A stretch of 64,000 bases of DNA, from positions 1 to 64,000 of IMG/VR virus record IMGVR_UViG_3300044986_000731, one strand, 5' to 3'. Positions 1,263-43,804 of the stretch are shown here, piece by piece. Both the position numbers and the translations under genes were made by a program. The notes under the pieces were generated by a model. It made no database searches. It was not told the DNA's origin and saw nothing but the letters and a program-made list of their open reading frames with translations. This DNA is from a virus. Each line of letters begins with the position of its first letter. Position 1 is the stretch's first letter.

Positions 1263-1589
1263 ATGATCGCTGACGGCAAGTTTCACCGAGACGGCGACGG
1301 CGGATACGTCGCGTGCTTCAAGACGACGCTCGACGGCAAGCCTGCCGTCGTGACGTTCGTGACAGAGCAGGGCCTGCGGGGCAGTCGCAGGTACTGGTGG
1401 ACGACCGCCACGGTGGACGGCATCGCCGTGATCCACCGCGACGGTCACTACTGCGGCCTGCCATCAGTTGTCCGCAGTGGACCCACGAAGAGAACTGCTA
1501 CGGACGTCGCGTTTCTCGCCGAGCGAGGCTTCGAGCGGATCGCGCCGCCGGAGGGGTGGACCGGATGTTTCGCTCGACTTCAGTCCTGA
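1263..1589 (+). CDS. hypothetical protein
   Basis: ATG 1263 after the GAAGGGAACCCCAACC leader. Confidence 0.7.
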   Translation: MIADGKFHRDGDGGYVACFKTTLDGKPAVVTFVTEQGLRGSRRYWWTTATVDGIAVIHRDGHYCGLPSVVRSGPTKRTATDVAFLAERGFERIAPPEGWTGCFARLQS

Positions 1590-1608
1590 AAAGAAAGGAA
1601 CCCCAACC

Positions 1609-2010
1609 GTGAACACCTACGACCCACACGCCGCCCGCAGCCGACTGCCGACGTCTCTGACCGTCGGCTGTGACGGCAACCTGTATCGAGTGCCCGAGGG
1701 GCTTCGCGGAGACTGGCCGCTCGTCCGCTCGAACTACTGCCGCCACCACCGCGAGATCAGGACCGTCGCCGACCTCAAGGCCACGCTGCGAGCCGGCGAG
1801 TATGCGTGGCCGGGCGGCGGCGCCCTGTACTGCGTCACTGCCGACGGAGCCGTGCTCTCGTTCGCCGCCGTCCGGCAGGAATTCCGTCAGGTTGCGGAGG
1901 CCGTGCGAGACCGCGACACTCTGCGGGGTTGGTGCGTGATTGGGATCGAGAACGCGGCAGACGACGACGAGCCGACAGTGTGTGACCACACTGGCGTGGT
2001 GATCGAGTAA
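1609..2010 (+). CDS. hypothetical protein
   Basis: GTG 1609 after the GAAAGGAACCCCAACC leader; YAWPGG motif and C-terminal CDHTG. Confidence 0.7.
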   Translation: MNTYDPHAARSRLPTSLTVGCDGNLYRVPEGLRGDWPLVRSNYCRHHREIRTVADLKATLRAGEYAWPGGGALYCVTADGAVLSFAAVRQEFRQVAEAVRDRDTLRGWCVIGIENAADDDEPTVCDHTGVVIE

Positions 2011-2028
2011 CGAGCAAGGAGACAACAC

Positions 2029-2226
2029 ATGATCATTCCAGTTCGGACATATCGGCTGCGTGGCGGGTATCGGCTCCTCGTGACCAAGACTCGCGACGTC
2101 TGGCAAGAGCGAGAGGGTCGTCACACGCTGCTCGCGACCGCGAGCGAGTGGTCGAGGCGGAACGGCGGCGACCTGAGACTCAGTCGCGGCAACGCATGCC
2201 GCGCTGCGAATTTCTGGGGCTTCTGA
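2029..2226 (+). CDS. hypothetical protein
   Basis: AAGGAG RBS; 65 aa. Confidence 0.6.
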   Translation: MIIPVRTYRLRGGYRLLVTKTRDVWQEREGRHTLLATASEWSRRNGGDLRLSRGNACRAANFWGF

Positions 2227-2237
2227 GGAGACTACCC

Positions 2238-2498
2238 GTGGATACTGTCTTTACTCCCGAATCGCTGGAGCGGAGCGTGGCGAGAGGGGCCTTTGCGGTT
2301 GCCACGCTGGGTGATTTCCTGAAGATCGACGCCGACGAGGTGTTCGTCTTCCGATTTCCGGCCAGAGACTTGTGGAACCGCGAGAACGGTGACGGTGAGT
2401 TTCTTGAGGTTCTGGACGTGGCGATCGACCGATCGAGTGTCACGACCAGCCACGGAGACATCCCGACGACGTCGGAGACGACGATCTACTATCGATGA
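2238..2498 (+). CDS. hypothetical protein
   Basis: GTG 2238 after GAGGAG. Confidence 0.55.
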   Translation: MDTVFTPESLERSVARGAFAVATLGDFLKIDADEVFVFRFPARDLWNRENGDGEFLEVLDVAIDRSSVTTSHGDIPTTSETTIYYR

Positions 2499-2521
2499 CA
2501 ACCAAAACCAAAGGAGCGGCA

Positions 2522-2791
2522 ATGAAACTCAGACTCCAGTCCTACAAGCCCGAAGCCCGCGAGGGCACGTTGCCGATGAGCGTGCACGCACCGGGCTTGC
2601 TCCGCTGGGCCAAGGCCGGCTACGGCGCGAGCAAGGCCGGCGACCGCACGGTCGTCGCGATCATCGCCGAGTCGTTCGGCCTGCGTCGCGAGGTCGTGCT
2701 CGCGATCCTGACCGGCGAAGTCGACATGGTCGTCGAGGGCGACGACGTGGTCGTGGACTGGCCCGGGGATGACCCCCTGAAACCGGCCTGA
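2522..2791 (+). CDS. hypothetical protein
   Basis: ATG 2522 after AAGGAG. Confidence 0.65.
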   Translation: MKLRLQSYKPEAREGTLPMSVHAPGLLRWAKAGYGASKAGDRTVVAIIAESFGLRREVVLAILTGEVDMVVEGDDVVVDWPGDDPLKPA

Positions 2792-5474: not shown

Positions 5475-6052
5475 GAGTCTTGATCCAGCGCGTCTACGAG
5501 TTTTGCCCGGAGACGAATCCGGAGATCGCGAAGGCAGTCGAGGTGTTTCGAGCGAACGGGTTTGAGGTGTTCGAGTCTGGTCGGCCGGAGAAGAAGCCTG
5601 AGCCTGAGCCTGAGCCTGAGCCGTCGGTGGACGAGCACGCATCTCGCCGTGCCTTGGTCACGCAGGCCGTAGCCAGCATGAGGTCTCGCGGTGGCCTTTC
5701 GAGCGCCGCTGCCTGCCGGCTCTTCGCCATCGACCAGACTCGGCTGGCGAAGTGGTCGCGGGGGCTTGGCCGTGTCGACGACACGACCCTCGCGAGGGTC
5801 AAGGCGGTCGAGGAGCGGCTCGCCGGCAAGTCGGCAGGCGAGATCGTGACGGTGGTCGAGGCCGTCTCGGCGCAGCAGGGAATCAGGGGTCGTCGGCAGA
5901 AACTGACCGAGACCGAGCGGGCCGAGGTCGCGCAGTTGCTTCGCGACGGGGTTCCTCCGAGGGAGATTGCCGCGACCTATCGCATGTCTCTGGGGTCGGT
6001 CGACAACTACCGTCGACGCGACGTTGGCAATGCCACGACGACGGAGGTATGA
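5471..6052 (+). CDS. helix-turn-helix DNA-binding protein (two HTH-like segments)
   Basis: ATG 5471 after GGAGG; LSSAAACRLFAIDQTRLAKW and LTETERAEVAQLLRDGVPPREIAATYRMSLGSV. Confidence 0.65.
   Translation: MRVLIQRVYEFCPETNPEIAKAVEVFRANGFEVFESGRPEKKPEPEPEPEPSVDEHASRRALVTQAVASMRSRGGLSSAAACRLFAIDQTRLAKWSRGLGRVDDTTLARVKAVEERLAGKSAGEIVTVVEAVSAQQGIRGRRQKLTETERAEVAQLLRDGVPPREIAATYRMSLGSVDNYRRRDVGNATTTEV
5597..5620 (+). repeat. (CCTGAG)4 in-frame microsatellite (PE repeat)
   Basis: direct reading. Confidence 0.9.
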
Positions 6053-6085
6053 TCGAGGTGTCCACTCGTCCCTCGGAGACAGATC

Positions 6086-6367
6086 ATGGCTCGCAAGCGC
6101 AAGCCCGCCGTCGCGGAGTCGGCGGATCATATCCCGAGCGGCGTCGAGGCAATCAGCACCCGTACAGCAGCCGAGATGCTGGGCTGCTGTACGGGGCACG
6201 TTCGGAAGTTAGTCGGTCGCGGTCGCCTCGGCGAGCGTGGCAGAGACTGGTTCCGCGTGTCGCCTCGATCGCTGCTCCTGTCTCTCAAGGCCGTGCAGCG
6301 GTACGCGAGGGATATCGAAGAGTCTCCGTACGGACGGCCTCGACTCGGGTTCTCGACCGACCGCTGA
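6086..6367 (+). CDS. excisionase-like (HTH_17/MerR-type) DNA-binding protein
   Basis: ISTRTAAEMLGCCTGHVRKLVGRGRL. Confidence 0.6.
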   Translation: MARKRKPAVAESADHIPSGVEAISTRTAAEMLGCCTGHVRKLVGRGRLGERGRDWFRVSPRSLLLSLKAVQRYARDIEESPYGRPRLGFSTDR

Positions 6368-6398
6368 TTTCGCTGGTTTTGCGGCTCTTTTGTGGCAC

Positions 6399-6427
6399 TG
6401 GACACAAGCCGCGACGTCGCGTATAGT
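6399..6427 (+). promoter_or_regulatory. sigma70-like promoter P3 with CGCGACGTCGCG operator
   Basis: TGGACA(6399-6404)-17 nt-TATAGT(6422-6427). Confidence 0.75.
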
Positions 6428-6472
6428 TGAACGTCTGGGTACGAGCACTGACACGCAAGGGAGAAGCAACAA

Positions 6473-7087
6473 ATGGTCACGAGCACATACGAGCGTTCGC
6501 GAGAGGCGACCCTTCCGATCCGCCGTGGGATCACGGTGGTCTTTCCTGTTGGCTGGACCGACCCGCAGTGCGCGGCGTGGGTACTCGATCAGGGCCTGCC
6601 ACAGCCACAGCCACAGCCACAGCCACAGCCACAGCCACAGCCACAGCCGGGCGACGTCTGGTCGCAGAACGTCGCCGCGTGCCCCTCGCTGGCGAAGGTC
6701 GAGTCGTCACCTCGCGTGCCGGCATTTGTCCGCGACATCGCGGGCAAGGCGAAGCGTTACCTGCTCTCCGAGCGGCAGCGAGCAGCGGTGACCAGTGCAG
6801 TCGAGCAGGCGGAGTCGCCGAAGAAGCCGATCGAGACTGGTCGCCGGCTCGTCGAGGGCAAGGTCGTGAAACTCAAATGGGAGACGCGAAACTCTGGATA
6901 CGGGTACGGCGCGAGGACGACTCAATCGCTCAAGGCGCTCGTCCAGTGCGACGGTTATCGCCTGTACGGAACCGTGCCGTCGGCGATCGTGAACTCGATC
7001 AGCGTCGGCGACACGCTCCGGGTCGAGGCGGAGGTCGTCGAGAAGGAGCCGGGGTTCGGATTCTTCTCGCGGCCGAGGGTGAAGTGA
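6473..7087 (+). CDS. hypothetical protein with PQ linker and C-terminal OB-fold-like domain
   Basis: GRRLVEGKVVKLK...GYRLYGTVPS...GDTLRVEAEV...FGFFSRP pattern. Confidence 0.7.
   Translation: MVTSTYERSREATLPIRRGITVVFPVGWTDPQCAAWVLDQGLPQPQPQPQPQPQPQPQPGDVWSQNVAACPSLAKVESSPRVPAFVRDIAGKAKRYLLSERQRAAVTSAVEQAESPKKPIETGRRLVEGKVVKLKWETRNSGYGYGARTTQSLKALVQCDGYRLYGTVPSAIVNSISVGDTLRVEAEVVEKEPGFGFFSRPRVK
6599..6646 (+). repeat. (CCACAG)8 in-frame microsatellite (PQ repeat)
   Basis: 8 perfect hexamer copies. Confidence 0.95.
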
Positions 7088-13405: not shown

Positions 13406-15078
13406 CGACGAAGCCGAAGGTCACACGCACGATCGGCGGTCCGGGCACCGGCAAGACACGGCTGATCCTCAGCCAACTCACGGCCGCGAGAGATGAGATG
13501 CGGCTCGCGACGGACGAGGTCGCCCTGTGCACGTTCTCGGTCGCAGGCCGTGCCGAGATCAGCGAGCGTGCGTCTCGCGAGTGGGGCGTCGGTGTAGAGA
13601 CGCTCACGCGAGACGGGTGGTTTCGTACGGCGCACTCGATTGCATACAAGCAGTGCGAGACTCGCAGAGGCCAGTTGATCAGCGAATCGGACACTGAGTG
13701 GCTCGCGGCTGCCGTCGGCGCGAAGATCGGCGTGGCGATGGACGAGCGAGGTGAGCGTCGGTACATGCAGGGCGCCGACGACACTCCCGTGACGCTCGCA
13801 CTCACGGCATGGGACGTCGCGAGAAACATGTGCGTGCCGCTTCGACGAGTCGTGTCACGGATCAACCTCCAGACACCGGGCTGCCAGATCGACGAGGACG
13901 GCGCGAAGCGAGTGATCGAGCGATACGAGTCCGCGAAGCGTCGCGAGGACCGGCTCGACTTCGTCGACCTCATCAGCGCATTCGCCGGCATCAGGCACAC
14001 GGTGGAAGGCTCGTCGCCGTGCGAGCCTGTGGGAGACGTCCCCGAGTCGATCCGTGTTTTGGCCGTCGACGAGGCGCAGGACTCTTCTCGTCTGGTCGAT
14101 GCCGTCTGCCGTAGACTGGCTTACGGAGGCAATGTCGAGCGAGTCTATATCACTGGCGACCCATTTCAATCGTGCCACGGATTTGCTGGCGGCGACTACC
14201 GGCTGTTTCTCGGCTGGGAAGTCGACGAAGAGTGCGTGATGCCGCAGAGTTACCGCTGCCCGCCCGAGGTCATGCGGCTGGGGGAATCATGCCTGCGACG
14301 CATGAGGCAGGGCTACCGCGACAGGAAGATCAACCCGGCGACGCACGTCGGACGGGTTCGCTCGTTTATGTCGGCCGAGGAGGCCATGCGGGGCATCAAC
14401 GCGGACACGTCTACGCTCGTGCTCGGCCGGTGCGTCCACTCACTGTCTGGATACCTGCACTATCTCGACTCGCACTCGCTCCCGTGGTCGTGGGCGTCTT
14501 CGAGTGCGTCGAGCGACGCAAACTCTGGATACCGTGCCCTGTACGACCTGTCTCGCGGGATGCCCGTGTCGGGCGACTCGTGGAGAGCCGCCATCGCGAT
14601 GCTGTCGGTGAGAAGCGAGGAGCACGGAGAGTTGCTCGCGAGGGGGGAGAAGGCCGCGTGGCAGGACGGCCGTCGCCGGCACATCGACGTCGCGAGGCCA
14701 TGCGAGGAGGACTACGGGCTGCTCGGAGTCCAGCCGGCGCTCCGATCGCTGATCGAGTCCGGGCGTTGGACTTTTGCCGTCGATCCACGACGCCGCGATC
14801 GCGCCGTGAAGTGGCTCGCGGTCGCGGAGAAGCACGGCCCGGACCTCGCAGGGAGTCCACGTATCCGCGTGTCGACCATACACGGCGCGAAGGGGCTGGA
14901 GGCCGACCTCGTGGTCATGTCGTCACGCACGAGCGCGGCTGTCGAGCGTGGCCGAGACCTTTTCGAGGAGTCGCACGATGAGGAGTGCCGTCTCGCCTAC
15001 GTAGGCGTGACGCGAGCGAGGTACGAGTTCCGGTACGCAGACGAGGGCGGCTCGCAGAGCATGCAGTTGCCCCTCTGA
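13402..15078 (+). CDS. UvrD/Rep-like SF1 helicase
   Basis: GGPGTGKT, TAHS, VDEAQD, GDPFQS, QSYRCP, STIHGAKGLEAD, YVGVTRAR. Confidence 0.9.
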   Translation: MTTKPKVTRTIGGPGTGKTRLILSQLTAARDEMRLATDEVALCTFSVAGRAEISERASREWGVGVETLTRDGWFRTAHSIAYKQCETRRGQLISESDTEWLAAAVGAKIGVAMDERGERRYMQGADDTPVTLALTAWDVARNMCVPLRRVVSRINLQTPGCQIDEDGAKRVIERYESAKRREDRLDFVDLISAFAGIRHTVEGSSPCEPVGDVPESIRVLAVDEAQDSSRLVDAVCRRLAYGGNVERVYITGDPFQSCHGFAGGDYRLFLGWEVDEECVMPQSYRCPPEVMRLGESCLRRMRQGYRDRKINPATHVGRVRSFMSAEEAMRGINADTSTLVLGRCVHSLSGYLHYLDSHSLPWSWASSSASSDANSGYRALYDLSRGMPVSGDSWRAAIAMLSVRSEEHGELLARGEKAAWQDGRRRHIDVARPCEEDYGLLGVQPALRSLIESGRWTFAVDPRRRDRAVKWLAVAEKHGPDLAGSPRIRVSTIHGAKGLEADLVVMSSRTSAAVERGRDLFEESHDEECRLAYVGVTRARYEFRYADEGGSQSMQLPL

Positions 15079-15092
15079 CATGGAGGTCAGGC

Positions 15093-15842
15093 ATGCGTGG
15101 CATCATGTTCGCGGTGGCTGCTGCTCTGTTCGCATTGATCGCCGAGGCGGGCACGATCCAGCCCGGCAGGAAGGACTCTGAGCACATCGAGTACGGGTCT
15201 CGGTTCCATTCCGTCGCGAGGATACGGTGCCGTGAGATCGAGAGCGGAGCGTGGCAGTCTGCGTCGTGCGTGCTCGTCTCGGAGCGTACGGCACTCACGG
15301 CCGCGCATGTGGTTGTTGGCACGGACCAATGGCAGGTGTCCACGCCTTCTGGCGAATGGGTCGCCGCGACGTGGGTGGTCATGCACCCGCAGTTCAACCG
15401 TGAGAAGCCCGGTTCGTTCGACGTCGCAGTCGTGCGTCTCAATGATGCGATCGAGATCGACTACTACCCAGCGATCTACGAGGGCGACGACGAGCAGGGG
15501 CAGGTGTGCAGTCTCGCCGGTTACGGGATCACGGGAAGCATGGTCACAGGACACACGATCTCGGACGGCATCCGTCGAGGTGGCTCGAACATCGTCGAGG
15601 AGATCGAGCACGGCGTGCTCGTGTGCACCGCAGGCGGGAGGCCGACGCAACTGGAGTTCTGCATCGCACCCGGAGACTCGGGCGGCGGGCTGTTTCTCGG
15701 GCGGTACCTCGCAGGCATCCATTCTTTCGTTTCGGCGACGGGAAGATTGCCAAAGTCGCGATACGGTGACGAGTCGGCTCACACTCGGCTGTCGCCCCCG
15801 GAGATGAGGTCATGGATCAGCGAGACAGCGTCGCGAAAGTAG
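15093..15842 (+). CDS. secreted trypsin-like (S1) serine protease
   Basis: signal-peptide-like N-terminus; catalytic triad motifs LTAAHV, FDVAVV, PGDSGG. Confidence 0.85.
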   Translation: MRGIMFAVAAALFALIAEAGTIQPGRKDSEHIEYGSRFHSVARIRCREIESGAWQSASCVLVSERTALTAAHVVVGTDQWQVSTPSGEWVAATWVVMHPQFNREKPGSFDVAVVRLNDAIEIDYYPAIYEGDDEQGQVCSLAGYGITGSMVTGHTISDGIRRGGSNIVEEIEHGVLVCTAGGRPTQLEFCIAPGDSGGGLFLGRYLAGIHSFVSATGRLPKSRYGDESAHTRLSPPEMRSWISETASRK

Positions 15843-20145: not shown

Positions 20146-20372
20146 CATGCCCGATCTGCGACCAGAAGACGATCAACTGCGACTGCACGGATGCAGATCG
20201 TCGCAATGCGGAACTCGAAGAACTCGTCGAGGTGCTGAGGGCAGAGGTCGAGCGGCTCAAACTCACGTACTCAGAGCGAGAAGCGATTGCTGCGGCGATT
20301 GACGCCGAGCATCGGCGAGGTGCGTGGCGGTGGGCCGATTCGCTGCGTGGGCTGCTGGAGAGGACTCGATGA
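20142..20372 (+). CDS. hypothetical protein (LRGLLERT family)
   Basis: CPIC..CDC; C-terminal LTYSERE...LRGLLERTR. Confidence 0.6.
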   Translation: MTCPICDQKTINCDCTDADRRNAELEELVEVLRAEVERLKLTYSEREAIAAAIDAEHRRGAWRWADSLRGLLERTR

Positions 20373-20884
20373 GCACGCTCGCCGTCTACACGGATCGTGG
20401 ACGCCAGTACTCCGACGAGGCGGACGCCGCGATGGAGGCCTACTGTGAGTTGCAGATGCTCAAGCCCGGAGACTCGATATGGGACGGATTCTCGTATGCC
20501 AAGACCGTCGAGCCGTGCCCGTTCGATTTCGTCATAATCAAGCACGGTCGCATTGCGGCGATCGTCGAGGTCAAGGCCCGCAACATGACGTCAGCGCAGT
20601 TGTTCAAGGAGTACGGCGGAGAGTGGCTCCTGTCGCTGCGGAAATACGCTGATCTCAGGACTGCATCCGAGATGCTCCGCGTTCCTGCCTACGGGCTGCT
20701 GTATCTCCTCGGGGACGGCACCCTGCTCCGCCAGCGGCTGTGCGGCCCGGATCAAGACTCGTGCCGCATGCGGGTCGAGACCTCGCCCACACAGGCGACG
20801 TGCAATGGCGGGACGAAGAGCATTGCCAATTGCTACATCTGCATGCAGACCGCGAAAGCGATCGAGATTCCGAGGGTGAAGTGA
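20369..20884 (+). CDS. PD-(D/E)XK nuclease-like protein
   Basis: PFDF...IVEVKAR. Confidence 0.6.
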   Translation: MSTLAVYTDRGRQYSDEADAAMEAYCELQMLKPGDSIWDGFSYAKTVEPCPFDFVIIKHGRIAAIVEVKARNMTSAQLFKEYGGEWLLSLRKYADLRTASEMLRVPAYGLLYLLGDGTLLRQRLCGPDQDSCRMRVETSPTQATCNGGTKSIANCYICMQTAKAIEIPRVK

Positions 20885-21135
20885 TGCCAATTTCGCTGAC
20901 GATCGCCGCCCTCTGGTTGCTCGTGTTTGTAACGCTGCTCGCGGTGGTGTGGAGCAGGCCGATGCCTGTCGCTACCGAACCGCCAGACGACGCGGTCGCG
21001 ATAGGCGACGGCTACATGCGAGTGTGGGCCACTCCACGTCGCGTGCACGTTCGGTTTCGCAACACCGGAGTGACGGTTCTCTTCGACCGGAGAGCGTCAA
21101 AAGAGTTCGGAGAGTGGCTTGCTTCGTTGGAGTAG
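20884..21135 (+). CDS. membrane-anchored hypothetical protein
   Basis: N-terminal hydrophobic helix. Confidence 0.55.
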   Translation: MPISLTIAALWLLVFVTLLAVVWSRPMPVATEPPDDAVAIGDGYMRVWATPRRVHVRFRNTGVTVLFDRRASKEFGEWLASLE

Positions 21136-21136
21136 C

Positions 21137-21229
21137 CAGCGAACGCCCGCGATCCCCAGCGGCGAGGAAAGGACGATGACTGAACAGAAAGACAATGCCG
21201 GGCCGTCTGGTGCATCCGCTGGTTATGCC
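21137..21229. mobile_element. attC-like recombination hairpin 1
   Basis: AAC(21142)-N6-GATCCCCAGCGGC...GCCG-T-CTGGTG-C-ATC-N5-GTT(21222); two extra bases on the 3' arm; RBS and ATG in the loop. Confidence 0.65.
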
Positions 21230-21670
21230 GCGCTGCTTCGCGACCCGCGATGGCAGCGGCGGCGGCTTCACATACTTCAGCGAGACGATTTCTGCTGCAC
21301 GGCCTGCGGCAACGGAGAATCGACGCTACATGTTCACCACAAGAGATACAGCGGAAAGCCTTGGGAGGCTGCGGACGACGATCTCCAAACACTGTGCGAA
21401 CAGTGCCACGCTGCGATTGGTCCGCACCCAAAGGGTGGCGTTTTCTACGAGTGGTGGATACTGGACGACGACAACAAAATGCTTTCAATCGCCTATGAGC
21501 ATTGCCCGCTATGCGGCGACGCCAAGGATGCCAGCCACAGCGGGATCGTGGCGTTTTCGTGCGGCCACAGTTTCTACTTGTCAGAACTACACGGCACTGG
21601 GATTGAGACGCAGTGGCAGGGAACTCACCGGGACGCCGAGTGCGGACCACCTGCTTTTGTCATGGCATAA
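21176..21670 (+). CDS. HNH endonuclease (cassette 1)
   Basis: PRWQRRR..ILQRD.F.CTAC...LHVHH..Y...LQTLCEQCH; stop codon lies within the GGCATAAC box. Confidence 0.8.
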   Translation: MTEQKDNAGPSGASAGYAALLRDPRWQRRRLHILQRDDFCCTACGNGESTLHVHHKRYSGKPWEAADDDLQTLCEQCHAAIGPHPKGGVFYEWWILDDDNKMLSIAYEHCPLCGDAKDASHSGIVAFSCGHSFYLSELHGTGIETQWQGTHRDAECGPPAFVMA

Positions 21671-21756
21671 CACGCGAGATCAACAGCCGCGAACGAAGGA
21701 GGCGGCAACCATGAGCGACGAGAATGAGCGGTCTGTTGCATCGGCTGGTTCTGCGA
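21664..21756. mobile_element. attC-like recombination hairpin 2
   Basis: AAC(21669)-N6-GATCAACAGCCGC...GCGG-T-CTGTTG-C-ATC-N5-GTT(21748); perfect stem apart from the extra C and T. Confidence 0.7.
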
Positions 21757-21983
21757 TCACCGCACGCGAACTGTTTGAGTCGCTCACCCATCGGCAGCGA
21801 GTGCTGTTGCTGGAATCGATAGGAAGCGTGCCGCGATGGGTGGTGTGCGGAAACGCGATCCAGAGGACGGCGGCGGCTCCCGTGGTGTTCGTCAGGGCGT
21901 ACCGATCGCATAGGCGTGGAGGGATGACGGTGCGACAGGCGGCGTACTGGGCATGGAGATGGGCGCAGGCGTTTTGCCTGTGA
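21711..21983 (+). CDS. hypothetical protein (cassette 2)
   Basis: ATG inside hairpin 2 after AAGGAGG; begins MSDENERSVASAGS. Confidence 0.6.
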   Translation: MSDENERSVASAGSAITARELFESLTHRQRVLLLESIGSVPRWVVCGNAIQRTAAAPVVFVRAYRSHRRGGMTVRQAAYWAWRWAQAFCL

Positions 21984-21987
21984 GGAT

Positions 21988-22080
21988 TCGCAGAACGCGC
22001 AGGATCAGGACAGGCGAACGATGAACACTGACGAACCAAAAAACGCGGCCGAGCCGTCTCCTGCATCGGCTGGTTCTGTG
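21988..22080. mobile_element. attC-like recombination hairpin 3
   Basis: AAC(21994)-N6-GATCAGGACAGGC...GCCG-T-CTCCTG-C-ATC-N5-GTT(22073). Confidence 0.65.
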
Positions 22081-22341
22081 GCTGGCAAGCCTGTGGCGGC
22101 GTGGGCGGTGGTCTGCGGAGATTGCGTCGATTCGACGTTCACCGACCGAGACGAGGCAATTGAGTGGGCATGTGGGCTTATCCCACCGGCGCATATCGTC
22201 CCGCTCTATCGCAGGCATGACGCGATGAGCCTGACAGCCGATGAGCGGGTTTCGCTTCAGTGGGTCGTCGGAGACGCACTGTCCGTTGACGGGATTTCGA
22301 TTCAAGCAACGCTGCGGGGCTTGCTGGAGCGGACGAAGTGA
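22021..22341 (+). CDS. hypothetical protein (cassette 3; LRGLLERT family)
   Basis: begins MNTDEPKNAAEPSPASAGS; PVAAW...PLYR; ends TLRGLLERTK. Confidence 0.7.
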   Translation: MNTDEPKNAAEPSPASAGSVAGKPVAAWAVVCGDCVDSTFTDRDEAIEWACGLIPPAHIVPLYRRHDAMSLTADERVSLQWVVGDALSVDGISIQATLRGLLERTK

Positions 22342-22389
22342 CGCAGAACCAGTGTTTATCGAGAACCGCCTAGTTGCGTTATCGCTGCA

Positions 22390-22602
22390 ATGCCCGCCAT
22401 CACCATAAAATTCATACTCCCCGACGAGCAGGCCGAGTTTGACGCCGCGCGCACGGGGGTGGAGTCTCGCCGAGTCCTGTGGCAGATCGATCAGCACTGC
22501 CGGTCGATCTGCAAGCACGGTGAGCCAACCGCAGAAGAGAGGCGGCTGGCCGAAGAGATACGGGAAATGATCCGCGACTCGTGCGAGAATCTACTGGACT
22601 AA
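22390..22602 (+). CDS. conserved phage hypothetical protein
   Basis: F.LPDE..EF..A..G....VLW.IDQ..RS..KHG. Confidence 0.7.
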   Translation: MPAITIKFILPDEQAEFDAARTGVESRRVLWQIDQHCRSICKHGEPTAEERRLAEEIREMIRDSCENLLD

Positions 22603-22835
22603 TGAGCGTATCGATCATCAGGCCGGGAACGAAGGTCACCATCGGCGGTCGCGAGTTTCCGATCTCAGCGACCGTCGTCGCGGTGTGCATGCGAGGCGAG
22701 GAATGTTCCCCTACTTACCAAGTCGCATACTGGGCAGGTGAGTTGCGGATGAAGGCATGGCTATCACCGTCTGAACTCACCACTCGCTCGCAAAAGTGTG
22801 CTAGGATTGGCTTTCTCGCGGAGGGGACGCCGTGA
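22602..22835 (+). CDS. hypothetical protein
   Basis: TAATG coupling; C-terminal RIGF. Confidence 0.55.
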   Translation: MSVSIIRPGTKVTIGGREFPISATVVAVCMRGEECSPTYQVAYWAGELRMKAWLSPSELTTRSQKCARIGFLAEGTP

Positions 22836-22844
22836 GAATGCGAG

Positions 22845-23270
22845 ATGCAATTATCGTCGTCGGTGATCGGCGAGATCGGCCGGCTCCTCGTATCGGCCGA
22901 ACTGCTGCGCCGCGGATACTCAGTCTCCCGTCCGGAGGCTGATGTCGGCCACGACATCGTCTCGATCTCTCCGAGCGGCGCCGCGTGGCGACTGCAAATC
23001 AAGGCACGTAGCGGCTATCCGCAGTTCGTCGTGCGGAGAGGCTCCCGGCGTAATCAGGCATACAGCCGCGAGGACGCTGACGGATTCGTATTCGCCGAGT
23101 TGACCAGTCATCGCTTCTGGATCATCCCGATCGACTGCGTCGGGGAGTCTCGCAGCGTTTCGATGAAGCGAAACTCGCCGTGGCTCTCGGCGTGGGGAAT
23201 CCTCGACAGCAGTCCGTGCCCGATCGCAGCCGCGATATCGCAACTCGGGAGGCTCGGAAATGCCACTTGA
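22845..23270 (+). CDS. PD-(D/E)XK endonuclease (PDDEXK_5-like)
   Basis: GEIG...ELLRRGY.VS.P....GHD...RLQIKA. Confidence 0.7.
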   Translation: MQLSSSVIGEIGRLLVSAELLRRGYSVSRPEADVGHDIVSISPSGAAWRLQIKARSGYPQFVVRRGSRRNQAYSREDADGFVFAELTSHRFWIIPIDCVGESRSVSMKRNSPWLSAWGILDSSPCPIAAAISQLGRLGNAT

Positions 23271-42240: not shown

Positions 42241-43804
42241 ACAAGGCGAGCCGTTCTACTTCGACGAGGACAAGGCCGCACACGCGGTCGGGTTCTTCGA
42301 GAAGTTCTTGATCCACTCGAAGGGTCGCTTCGCCGGCAAGCCCTTCACGCTCTTGCCGTGGCAGAGGCACGACGTCATCGAGGAACTCTTCGGCTGGATG
42401 AGGGTCGACAACGACCGGAGGAAGTACAGGGTCGGGTACATCGAGGTTCCCAAAAAAAACGGAAAATCGACCCTCCTCTCCGGCATTGGACTCTACATGC
42501 TGATTGCTGACGGCGAGCCGTCGGCCGAGTGCTTCGGGGCGGCGAATTCCCGCGATCAGGCTGGCATCGTCTACAAGCAGATGAAAGAGTTGGTGCAGGC
42601 CAGCCCCTACCTCTCGTCGATGCTGGAGATCGTCGACTCTCGCAAGACCATCGCGTGCGTCCCGACGAACTCTTTCTGGCGTGTGATCTCGTCTGACGCC
42701 GGCCGTCAGGAAGGTCTGAATATTCACTCGCTCTGTTATGACGAAATCCATCAGAGCCGCGACCGGGCGCTATGGGATGCGGTTCGCTACGGTTCTATCT
42801 CCAGAGATCAGGGCCTCGTTCTGGCGATTACCACGGCCGGCGTCGACCGGGACTCGATCGGCTACGAGTTGCACTCGCAGGCGATCAAGGTCATGGAAGA
42901 CCCCTCGTACGATCACCAGTTCTTCGCCTACGTGCGTGCTGCGTCTCAGGACGACGACTACCGCAGCCCGGCCGTCTGGAAGGCCGCAAATCCTTCGTTC
43001 GGCGTCACGATGGACGAGGAGACGTTCAAGGCAGACGTGCTCGAAGCCGAGAGGTCCGGCGGCTCGAAACTCGCCGGCTTCCTGCGATACAGGCTCAATA
43101 TCTGGGTGCACGGCGAGAACAAGTTCGTGAACCTGACCCAGTGGGACAAGTGCAAGGGCCGGTCCGGCCACCTCGACAAGTCCCGTGTCTGGTACTGCGG
43201 ACTCGACCTCGCTCAGACGTGGGACGTGAACGCATTCGTCGCCGTCTCGAAGGCTCACGACGACGTCTACGACTGCCTGTTCAAGTTCTGGATTCCAGCC
43301 GATAACGCTCATCAACGCCGCGAGGAAGTGCCGTACGTGCTCTGGGCGAAAGACGAGTCGACCGGACTCGTGATGACGCCCGGGGACACCTGCGACTACG
43401 AATTCATCAAGCGAGACATACTCGCGTTCGCCAAGGAGCGTCAGGTCGCGAAGGTTCTCTGCGACCCGCACAACGCCCACTACCTCACGCAACAACTTCA
43501 GGCCGAGGGCCTGACAGTGCTAGGCTTTTCACAGTCGTTCGCCTCGATGAACTCGTCGACGCGAATGCTGGAGACATTGATCAGTCAAGGTCGTCTGAGG
43601 ACTCAGGACAACCCTGTCATCAACTGGATGGCCGGCAATGCGGTGACGAAGACCTCGGCCGAGGGGTACATCAAGATCGTGAAGCCCGCATCTACCAGCC
43701 CGGCGAGAGTCGACGGAATGGTCGCGCTCGTGATGGCACTCGCTGGCGCCAGTGACGCCGAGGCTGCCGCCAAGACTCCAGAGCCGGAGATTCTCGTCCT
43801 ATGA
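42185..43804 (+). CDS. terL: terminase large subunit
   Basis: LLPWQ, VPKKNGKST (Walker A), YDEIH, ITTAG, ANPS, GLDLA, RVDG. Confidence 0.95.
   Translation: MPLPPKILLPRISRDEAVEQGEPFYFDEDKAAHAVGFFEKFLIHSKGRFAGKPFTLLPWQRHDVIEELFGWMRVDNDRRKYRVGYIEVPKKNGKSTLLSGIGLYMLIADGEPSAECFGAANSRDQAGIVYKQMKELVQASPYLSSMLEIVDSRKTIACVPTNSFWRVISSDAGRQEGLNIHSLCYDEIHQSRDRALWDAVRYGSISRDQGLVLAITTAGVDRDSIGYELHSQAIKVMEDPSYDHQFFAYVRAASQDDDYRSPAVWKAANPSFGVTMDEETFKADVLEAERSGGSKLAGFLRYRLNIWVHGENKFVNLTQWDKCKGRSGHLDKSRVWYCGLDLAQTWDVNAFVAVSKAHDDVYDCLFKFWIPADNAHQRREEVPYVLWAKDESTGLVMTPGDTCDYEFIKRDILAFAKERQVAKVLCDPHNAHYLTQQLQAEGLTVLGFSQSFASMNSSTRMLETLISQGRLRTQDNPVINWMAGNAVTKTSAEGYIKIVKPASTSPARVDGMVALVMALAGASDAEAAAKTPEPEILVL

Follow-up and report, generated by a model that had tools for sequence, protein, structure and literature searches.

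The 64,000-nt window analysed here is the first part of a 90,351-bp phage genome record (IMG/VR IMGVR_UViG_3300044986_000731, denoted G000), and positions are those of the window unless another source is named. Its + strand carries three hairpins, each running from an AAC to a GTT and each leading into a small gene: hairpin 1 at 21142–21224 (83 nt), hairpin 2 at 21669–21750 (82 nt), and hairpin 3 at 21994–22075 (82 nt). Each hairpin is laid out as AAC-N6-GAT, 5′ arm, loop, 3′ arm, and ATC-N5-GTT, and its 3′ arm contains one unpaired T followed, six bases on, by an unpaired C. The start codons of the three genes (ATG at 21176, 21711, and 22021) lie inside the hairpin loops, together with a ribosome-binding site in hairpin 1 and the sequence GAAGGAGG in hairpin 2, and the motif ASAG(S/Y) is common to the N termini of all three proteins. 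The box after each GTT is the reverse complement of the box preceding the next AAC, which gives the pairs GTTATGCC (21222) and GGCATAAC (21664), GTTCTGCGA (21748) and TCGCAGAAC (21988), and GTTCTG (22073) and CAGAAC (22344). All of these features had been described in a sequence-only reading of the window, which took the units for mobile gene cassettes of the integron type, and all are present in the sequence.

The first unit (21144–21670, + strand) joins hairpin 1, which begins AAC-N6-GATC and scores 65.8 bits (E = 8.5e-19) in a covariance-model search, to an open reading frame (ORF) at 21176–21670 that matches the Pfam HNH domain (E = 1.8e-4) and whose TAA stop codon overlaps the next AAC. 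The second unit (21671–21995) comprises hairpin 2 (88.1 bits, E = 3.5e-26), which is identical to positions 2510–2591 of contig L100, and a 90-aa ORF at 21711–21983. The third (21996–22348) comprises hairpin 3 (75.8 bits, E = 4.1e-22) and a 106-aa ORF at 22021–22341; neither this ORF nor the 90-aa ORF belongs to a Pfam family. The array ends in an attI-like terminal site at 22347–22395, which reads AAC CAGTGT TTATCGAG and then a second TTATCG copy. It is directly followed by a 70-aa ORF (22390–22602) that has no Pfam family either; homologues of this ORF are found in 16 of 87 related loci, in 12 of them 3′ of the array. The phage genome contains three exact copies of the 14-mer from the 3′ arm, all of them in this array, and the covariance model recovers these three sites alone from the whole genome, the next best match having an E value of 0.43.

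By the definition used in IntegronFinder, a cluster of two or more attC sites without an integrase is termed a CALIN. The three sites lie within 934 bp, and the nearest tyrosine recombinase gene is 57 kb off and is not an IntI, so the array classes as a CALIN. No gene of the tyrosine recombinase family PF00589 (Phage_integrase) lies in the window, in agreement with the sequence-only reading, which had called the array CALIN-like on that account.

The hairpins belong to a large family in uncultured viruses. An exact 17-mer of the 3′ arm matches at least 119 IMG/VR contigs, and the census seeded by this single 17-mer, with a filter on layout and stem, yielded at least 257 elements in 88 of 120 sources, i.e., in at least 87 other viral contigs; related contigs in this set are not fully independent. 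Within a source, all elements share one strand; the longest arrays comprise 14 (contig L014) and 13 (L066) elements, and the length classes are 41–42 nt (24 copies), 47–48 nt (17 copies), and 79–83 nt (214 copies). Arrays are longer than counted, because variant hairpins in which ATT...AAT replaces the GAT...ATC L box escaped the filter; such a variant (AAC GGCTGC ATTGAGCAGC ... GCTCCAATGCTTGGTT) is seen at the array ends of L026, L036, L058, L119, and L043.

The hairpin structure is supported by covariation among these relatives, not by stability. In 111 distinct 82-nt copies, 98.4% of cells are paired versus 86.4% in shuffles (a value that none of 500 shuffles reaches), and cells with double, compensatory changes number 188 versus 52; slid controls give 22–48%. 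Compensatory change is observed in 8 of the 13 inner stem pairs. The unpaired C is kept in 256 of 257 copies and is framed by a covarying pair, formed by the base that follows GAT (C/A/G) and the one two positions ahead of ATC (G/T/C). The spacer between the R and L boxes is mostly unpaired, pairs 7:78 and 8:77 being open in 101 and 94 of the 111 copies, respectively, and terminal loops range from 3 to about 38 nt. The stems contain 23 G:T wobbles versus 2 A·C mismatches, which identifies the + strand as the folding strand. The hairpins therefore display the R box (AAC...GTT), L box, open spacer, extrahelical bases, and variable loop of attC sites. The constancy of AAC and GTT in the phage set is by construction, since the filter required both; the independent check comes from the bacterial matches to the covariance model described below.

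The sequence-only reading placed a start codon inside each hairpin. This holds for the three hairpins of the window, for 157 of 230 units in the family, and for 96 of 111 distinct 82-nt elements; it is not general, in that the 41–48-nt copies contain no start codon and are positioned between genes. Across the three copies in the window, the variable codon of the 3′ arm (GGT, GTT, or CCT) changes together with the non-coding 5′ arm (CC, AA, or AGG), which indicates that pairing rather than a peptide motif is being conserved. An N-terminal targeting peptide, for which the capsid-targeting sequence of phage T4 is the model, was considered as an account of the shared N terminus and dropped, because the constraint on the DNA explains the peptide and the G/V/P codon covaries with non-coding sequence.

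Complementarity of the boxes, like that noted in the window, proves to be a property of the family. Over the 5 nt beyond AAC/GTT, complementarity across the cassette amounts to 0.97, 0.98, 0.91, 0.88, and 0.73 in 148 distinct pairs, versus 0.68, 0.83, 0.45, 0.31, and 0.40 within the hairpin in 229 pairs, the latter values being those of shuffled partners. All five box positions match in 61% of comparisons across the cassette and in at most 14% in 1000 shuffles.

The borders of the units were located by comparing relatives pairwise; body clustering gave too few repeats (146 clusters for 169 cassettes) to tie hairpin type to body. The body of cassette 1 has a counterpart of 98% identity in contig L017, namely its last, attI-proximal unit. 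The two sequences part immediately after AAC: beyond GGCATAAC, the window goes into hairpin 2 and L017 into the terminal site. At the right border, 14 of 19 non-syntenic pairs with the same body match at 19–20 of the 20 nt before AAC and at 1–14 of the 20 nt after it. At the left border, four pairs match at 3–9 of the 20 nt before the upstream AAC and at 19–20 of the 20 nt after it. None of the non-syntenic same-body pairs shares its downstream hairpin. Together, the identity borders at AAC and the lack of a shared downstream hairpin define the unit as a hairpin plus the gene that follows it, and they uphold the proposal of cassettes bounded at AAC/GTT. Gene content at these boundaries also varies: ten contig pairs are at least 85% identical over the 400 nt after the terminal AAC, and of these, six agree in their last unit. 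The last units of the other four pairs are unrelated, although their downstream DNA is 87–96% identical.

The downstream end of the arrays has a site of its own. The matching box of the last hairpin, with its AAC, is found within 1.5 kb downstream in 49 of 65 arrays; a matching box upstream of the first hairpin is found in 17 of 66 arrays, and 15 of those 17 are, as judged by eye, diverged hairpins that had escaped the filter. In most arrays the terminal AAC is followed by a conserved non-hairpin site composed of CAGTGT, TT(C/A)T(G/A)CGG, and an inverted partner ending in ATAAC, and a second ATAAC copy is frequent. The window retains the first 14–16 nt of this site at 22347. In most arrays the terminal site lies on the side expected for attI from the polarity of attC, and by eye it resembles two bacterial attI regions.

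Bacterial relatives of the sites were found with a covariance model, R1, built from the phage copies only. R1 matches five of five hand-picked Planctomycetota genomes and, at E ≤ 1e-6, 12 of 151 sampled Planctomycetota genomes versus 2 of 151 sampled Pseudomonadota. In genome G098, contig C8 contains at least 27 co-oriented R1 sites over 16 kb that end about 800 nt from an IntI gene (TIGR02249, 351.7 bits, above the curated cut-off), and contig C22 has an IntI of 363.8 bits with 6 sites; 3 sites accompany an IntI of 402.1 bits in G168, and in Rohdeia mirabilis Pla163 one R1 site lies 1.7 kb from an IntI of 420.8 bits. All 27 of 27 sites in G098 contig C8 begin with AAC and end with GTT, and the same across-cassette complementarity was obtained when the box test was run on this integron as a positive control. 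The identification of the phage hairpins as attC sites is thus strengthened by relatives that adjoin true IntI genes. From the orientation of the arrays relative to the bacterial IntI genes, the strand of the model corresponds to the bottom strand of attC, and the phage terminal site lies at the expected position of attI.

The same comparison bears out the earlier suggestion that the sites are inverted relative to classical cassettes. In 25 of 26 cassettes of G098 contig C8 the longest ORF lies opposite the hairpin strand, whereas in 116 of 157 phage cassettes it lies on the hairpin strand. The GC contents at codon positions 1, 2, and 3 on the phage hairpin strand are 0.63, 0.49, and 0.69, a coding-type pattern, versus 0.60, 0.59, and 0.63 on the other strand. 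Classical cassettes have the ORF on the top strand and attC at its 3′ end. In the phage units the ORF occupies the bottom-like strand, and the hairpin opens the unit at its 5′ end and thus moves together with the gene downstream of it. The one bacterial cassette of the 26 with phage polarity is the attI-proximal one (L313 16360–16650), which carries a Cys-rich ORF of 75 aa on the hairpin strand.

Further sites were noticed in bacterial assemblies. Contig C24 (42.8 kb) of the Pirellulales bin G083 has phage-grade hairpins (65–69 bits) at both ends, at 53–133, 42340–42422, and 42741–42782, and could represent an entire phage genome that was placed in the bin of its host; the bin also has an IntI on a 1.6-kb contig. 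In the Phycisphaerales genome G085, an R1-type hairpin lies about 140 nt upstream of a gene for a recombinase of ~306 aa (L304 10198–11285, L306 9121–10275, L305 7784–7877) that matches the IntI model below the cut-off and in two pieces (4–181 and 244–315). At least two near-identical copies are present in the genome, and the arrangement resembles a small mobile element made up of a hairpin and an IntI-like gene without the middle segment. An assembly of Cyanobium sp. FGCU52 (L148, a contig of 15.8 kb, and contigs C13, C44, and C10 of G239) contains six phage-grade hairpins, which indicates that a phage of this family is present in that culture.

Each of the 230 units contains one ORF, of median length 105 aa and filling 87% of the unit, and in most units the stop codon lies 1–10 nt before the end of AAC. 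Among 150 cassette proteins there are 19 DUF551 proteins, about 6 DNA methyltransferases, 2 HNH proteins, and 2 AP2 proteins; most have no Pfam family. Outside the array, two genes for PD-(D/E)XK-type nucleases flank it at 20324–20884 and 22845–23270 (Pfam matches below the cut-off, E = 8e-4 and 6.4e-5), and in a relative from metagenome X4 a small gene upstream of the array has an 18-nt insertion at window position 20917 that repeats the adjacent letters.

We consider it highly probable that the three hairpins and their genes are mobile cassettes of the integron type bounded at AAC. The 1.2-kb stretch would then be a three-cassette array ending in an attI-like receptor site at 22347, and each cassette, one hairpin and one small ORF, would start with the C of one AAC and finish at the AA of the one after it. 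The strand predicted to fold is the + strand, which is also the coding strand and equals the bottom strand of a bacterial attC, with AAC on the 5′ arm and the extrahelical bases on the 3′ arm. By analogy with integrons (PMC5027507), a tyrosine recombinase would cut within the AAC of this folded strand. We infer that the substrate is single-stranded and that exchange between two hairpins would free a circle, on which the two ends of the unit come together to re-form an 8-bp R box; exchange between a hairpin and the terminal site would add the circle to the array at its downstream end. The cassette genes would be read by rightward transcription of the phage, in the direction of the attI-like site. 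The variable loop of most long copies would have become a translation start, with a ribosome-binding site, ATG, and about 12 codons, and the 3′ arm would be translated as ...PS.ASAG(S/Y).

The host is likely a planctomycete, given that the site family is shared with the sedentary chromosomal integrons of Planctomycetota. The IntI of the host, supplied in trans during infection, is the leading candidate for the enzyme, a proposal to which we give about even odds. A broader proposal, which we offer only tentatively, is that tailed phages of planctomycetes keep a mirror-image integron platform of their own, with an attI-like site, arrays of up to 14 or more units, loops remade as translation starts so that each gene taken up is expressed from the phage transcript, a host IntI or an Xer-like enzyme, and a cassette pool that circulates among phages and is possibly linked to bacterial integrons.

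Several observations weigh against the interpretation of the array as integron-type cassettes. The phage genome has no match to IntI (TIGR02249) at E ≤ 1, so the locus is not a complete integron. The R boxes of the phage family, [C/G]A[G/T]AAC on the left and GTT[C/A]T[G/C] on the right, depart from the classical R′/R″ consensus RYYYAAC/GTTRRRY given in PMC5027507, and the bacterial sites score 33–52 bits with R1 versus 65–95 bits for the phage copies. Single-strand folding, put forward with the original proposal as a check on it, lent no support: minimum free energies, calculated for DNA and RNA on both strands, are no better than those of shuffles (z from −1.34 to +1.47). The terminal site of the window lacks the inverted partner of the family consensus. 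At E ≤ 1e-5, none of the 150 phage cassette proteins has a relative in the planctomycete regions sampled (about 200 kb, with several integron arrays among them), which thus gave no sign of gene flow between the phage and bacterial pools. An exact-pattern scan of one genome for each of 185,579 bacterial and archaeal species gave 39 matches, of which 36 were rejected as chance occurrences without the element; the three true ones, all on contigs that are short or resemble phage (a 1.3-kb contig of a Methylocystis bin, a 3-kb contig of a Pirellulales bin, and the 15.8-kb Cyanobium culture contig), do not show the host. Finally, identity is not always lost at the upstream AAC: for 14 of the 21 non-syntenic pairs the break falls within the upstream hairpin itself, in its loop (7 pairs) or its 3′ arm (7 pairs).

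Direct products of recombination were also looked for in four lake, freshwater, and aquaculture metagenomes, compared as assembled contigs rather than reads, and this too counts against the proposal: no circle junctions (e.g., 21670 to 21144) and no precise deletions were found in the contigs. Contig joints that might have been taken for excision or circles were rejected, as their sides are 25–51 nt long at a 90% threshold and the intervening DNA is undefined; they probably stem from other cassettes with the hairpins in common. Spikes in depth over the hairpins show repeat abundance only. In run X4, loose ends of single contigs at 22344, 22345, and 22349 are consistent with other neighbours at the AAC/attI junction, a weak indication.

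As to the enzyme, the same cassettes could be run by the phage's own recombinase, encoded at 79.4–80.3 kb of G000 and acting on the folded hairpins, in which case the system would be autonomous and no IntI would be needed. We judge this unlikely. The gene is the only one of the searched recombinase families in the phage genome: its PF00589 match (79,714-80,196) is the sole one, and neither a Y1 transposase nor a resolvase was found in G000. (Single-strand transposition of the IS200/IS605 type was likewise dropped as an explanation, no HUH gene having been found in G000.) The encoded protein is Xer-like, with XerA and XerD as its nearest solved relatives. Of 49 array-bearing records, 28 have a PF00589 gene, as do all 13 of those that are at least 90% complete, and eleven of the recombinases from array phages form one family in which all catalytic residues are invariant. 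Against this, the gene is never beside the array, lying 12–57 kb away in array-bearing records, and the reverse association fails: only 6 of 32 records picked for the recombinase family have hairpins, and 1 of 9 among those at least 90% complete. The link between recombinase and array is thus not specific, and the enzyme could simply be a lysogeny integrase. The sequence-only reading had mentioned a distant phage tyrosine recombinase; the genome does have one such gene, 57 kb away, which is Xer-like rather than IntI and not particular to array phages. The phage protein also lacks an insertion of ~45–50 residues that is found between the Lys hairpin and HxxR in two planctomycete IntIs. This insertion may hold the I2 helix, to which one report ties the single-strand recombination of IntI (PMC7790495).

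Other properties of this recombinase family were recorded alongside. The reading frame (79.4–80.7 kb in G000; 1435–2682, minus strand, in L123) stays open for ~130 Arg/Pro-rich codons upstream of the conserved Met, and the start is probably the Met at L123 2310. The phage protein is 25% identical to the hairpin-adjacent recombinase of the Phycisphaerales genome, a general family likeness only. In eight complete genomes that have the recombinase and no hairpins, a generic strict scan for AAC...GTT hairpins gave 0–1 matches per strand, with a positive control in which the scan recovered 1 of 3 sites, and a census of repeated 12-mers was too noisy to use. Two phages of this kind show dense, closely spaced 12-mers repeated three or more times (G057 5880–6483 and G058 14693–15093). 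Neither blastn with the array nor tblastn with the recombinase gave a match among 50,697 GenBank phage records.

It is improbable that the arrays are fossils, taken from host integrons and now inert, with their variation due to ordinary phage mosaicism. Such an origin would agree with the absence of IntI from the phage, with the lack of any directly observed event, and with the partly degenerate terminal site of the window. The hairpins, however, are intact and covarying in 257 copies, and a coding polarity opposite to that in bacteria, together with starts in most long loops, points to long residence and selection in phages. Nor would inert arrays be expected to have different last units beside downstream DNA that is 87–96% identical, and the bacterial arrays that were sampled yielded no phage cassette protein.

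Homologous recombination or replication slippage between intergenic repeats, without a site-specific enzyme, is a still poorer account of the array, and we regard it as very improbable. It would resemble the exchange attributed to PeSLs, promoter–terminator motifs of T4-type phages that are thought to use homologous recombination (PMC2839356, PMC4122927); in the accounts of these elements, as here, repeated stem-loops flank small accessory ORFs in hyperplastic phage regions. The arrays consist of direct repeats with identical arms of 15–30 nt, and in the 14 of 21 pairs mentioned above the body is the same and the upstream hairpin differs from the loop or the 3′ arm onwards. A second process, exchange between repeated hairpins of the PeSL kind, probably also acts and probably accounts for these chimeric hairpins. 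As the sole process, however, it would leave unexplained the box complementarity across the cassette, the breaks at a 3-nt AAC without flanking homology, the conserved terminal site, and the homology to IntI-linked attC sites. The complementarity, the AAC borders, and the homology to attC also set the present elements apart from PeSLs as described. Moreover, promoter-like sites in 20500–23000 number 0, versus 0.7 expected, by a sigma-70 consensus that may not suit the host, and neither of the two terminator-like sites in this interval is at a hairpin.

That the hairpins act in RNA only, as an operator, processing site, or leader, with the N terminus as a functional peptide tag, is scarcely credible: the folded strand is indeed the mRNA strand, G:U is tolerated, and the loop holds the ribosome-binding site and AUG, but this would predict neither the cassette signature nor the AAC borders, the 41–48-nt copies lie between genes without a start codon, the bacterial relatives are antisense to their genes, and a search of Rfam gave no family at E ≤ 1 for the hairpins, with two chance matches elsewhere only. 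An RNA role alongside recombination may exist.

Integrons are seen as belonging to bacteria, and the handful of attC clusters so far described from phages look like stray pieces. Here, an uncultured freshwater phage lineage maintains arrays that are ordered and co-oriented, possess a putative receptor site, and turn over steadily at exact borders. Were enzyme action shown, it would follow that phages use integron chemistry to trade accessory genes, that an attC site can double as coding sequence and translation start, and that cassettes can freely reverse their polarity where transcription arrives from the opposite direction. The system, if real, would also offer a route for mixing the phage and bacterial cassette pools and a compact natural set of sites for structure-specific recombination tools. 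We found no account in the literature of inverted phage arrays, loop-embedded starts, or a phage attI-like site; the supplementary tables of PMC9892861 could list something similar.

The closest published phage examples come from a survey of deposited phage genomes that found 17 CALINs with two or more predicted attC sites apiece and tested six sites with IntI1 (Qi et al. 2023, PMC9892861). The present arrays share with those CALINs the clustering of attC sites without an integrase and the presence of orphan DNA methyltransferases in the cargo; they differ in having up to 14 units, an attI-like end, an inverted orientation relative to the genes, and a start codon in the loop. With classical integrons, as summarized by Nivina et al. 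2016 (PMC5027507), the likeness extends to a folded bottom strand, an AAC crossover triplet in the R box, extrahelical bases opposite AAC, an unpaired central spacer, a variable terminal loop, and similar attC sites within an array. Unlike the systems summarized there, the phage arrays have no IntI and no Pc-type arrangement, their genes are read towards the attI-like site, their R-box consensus differs beyond AAC, and their shortest sites are 41 nt.

The relationship is nearest with Planctomycetota. The architecture AAC-N6-GATC-A-stem...stem-T-stem-G-C-ATC-N5-GTT is the same base for base, including both unpaired bases, and the integrons share the box complementarity within the cassette and a single compact ORF per cassette. 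In the bacteria, however, the hairpin follows the gene, which is coded opposite the hairpin strand, whereas in the phages it precedes the gene, which is coded on the hairpin strand. The bacterial R boxes (gcccAAC/GTTgggc) fit the classical consensus, unlike the phage boxes ([C/G]A[G/T]AAC/GTT[C/A]T[G/C]), and only the phage copies are marked by a ribosome-binding site and ATG in most long loops and by an array with no IntI beside it; no common cargo was found between the two.

Reliance of a phage hairpin on a host enzyme has a counterpart in the filamentous phages of the CTX type, in which a folded, single-stranded attP is recombined by host XerCD at dif and the whole phage genome is integrated. 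In both cases a phage hairpin would rebuild the core site of a tyrosine recombinase supplied by the host; here, by contrast, many such sites bound single genes inside the genome of a tailed phage.

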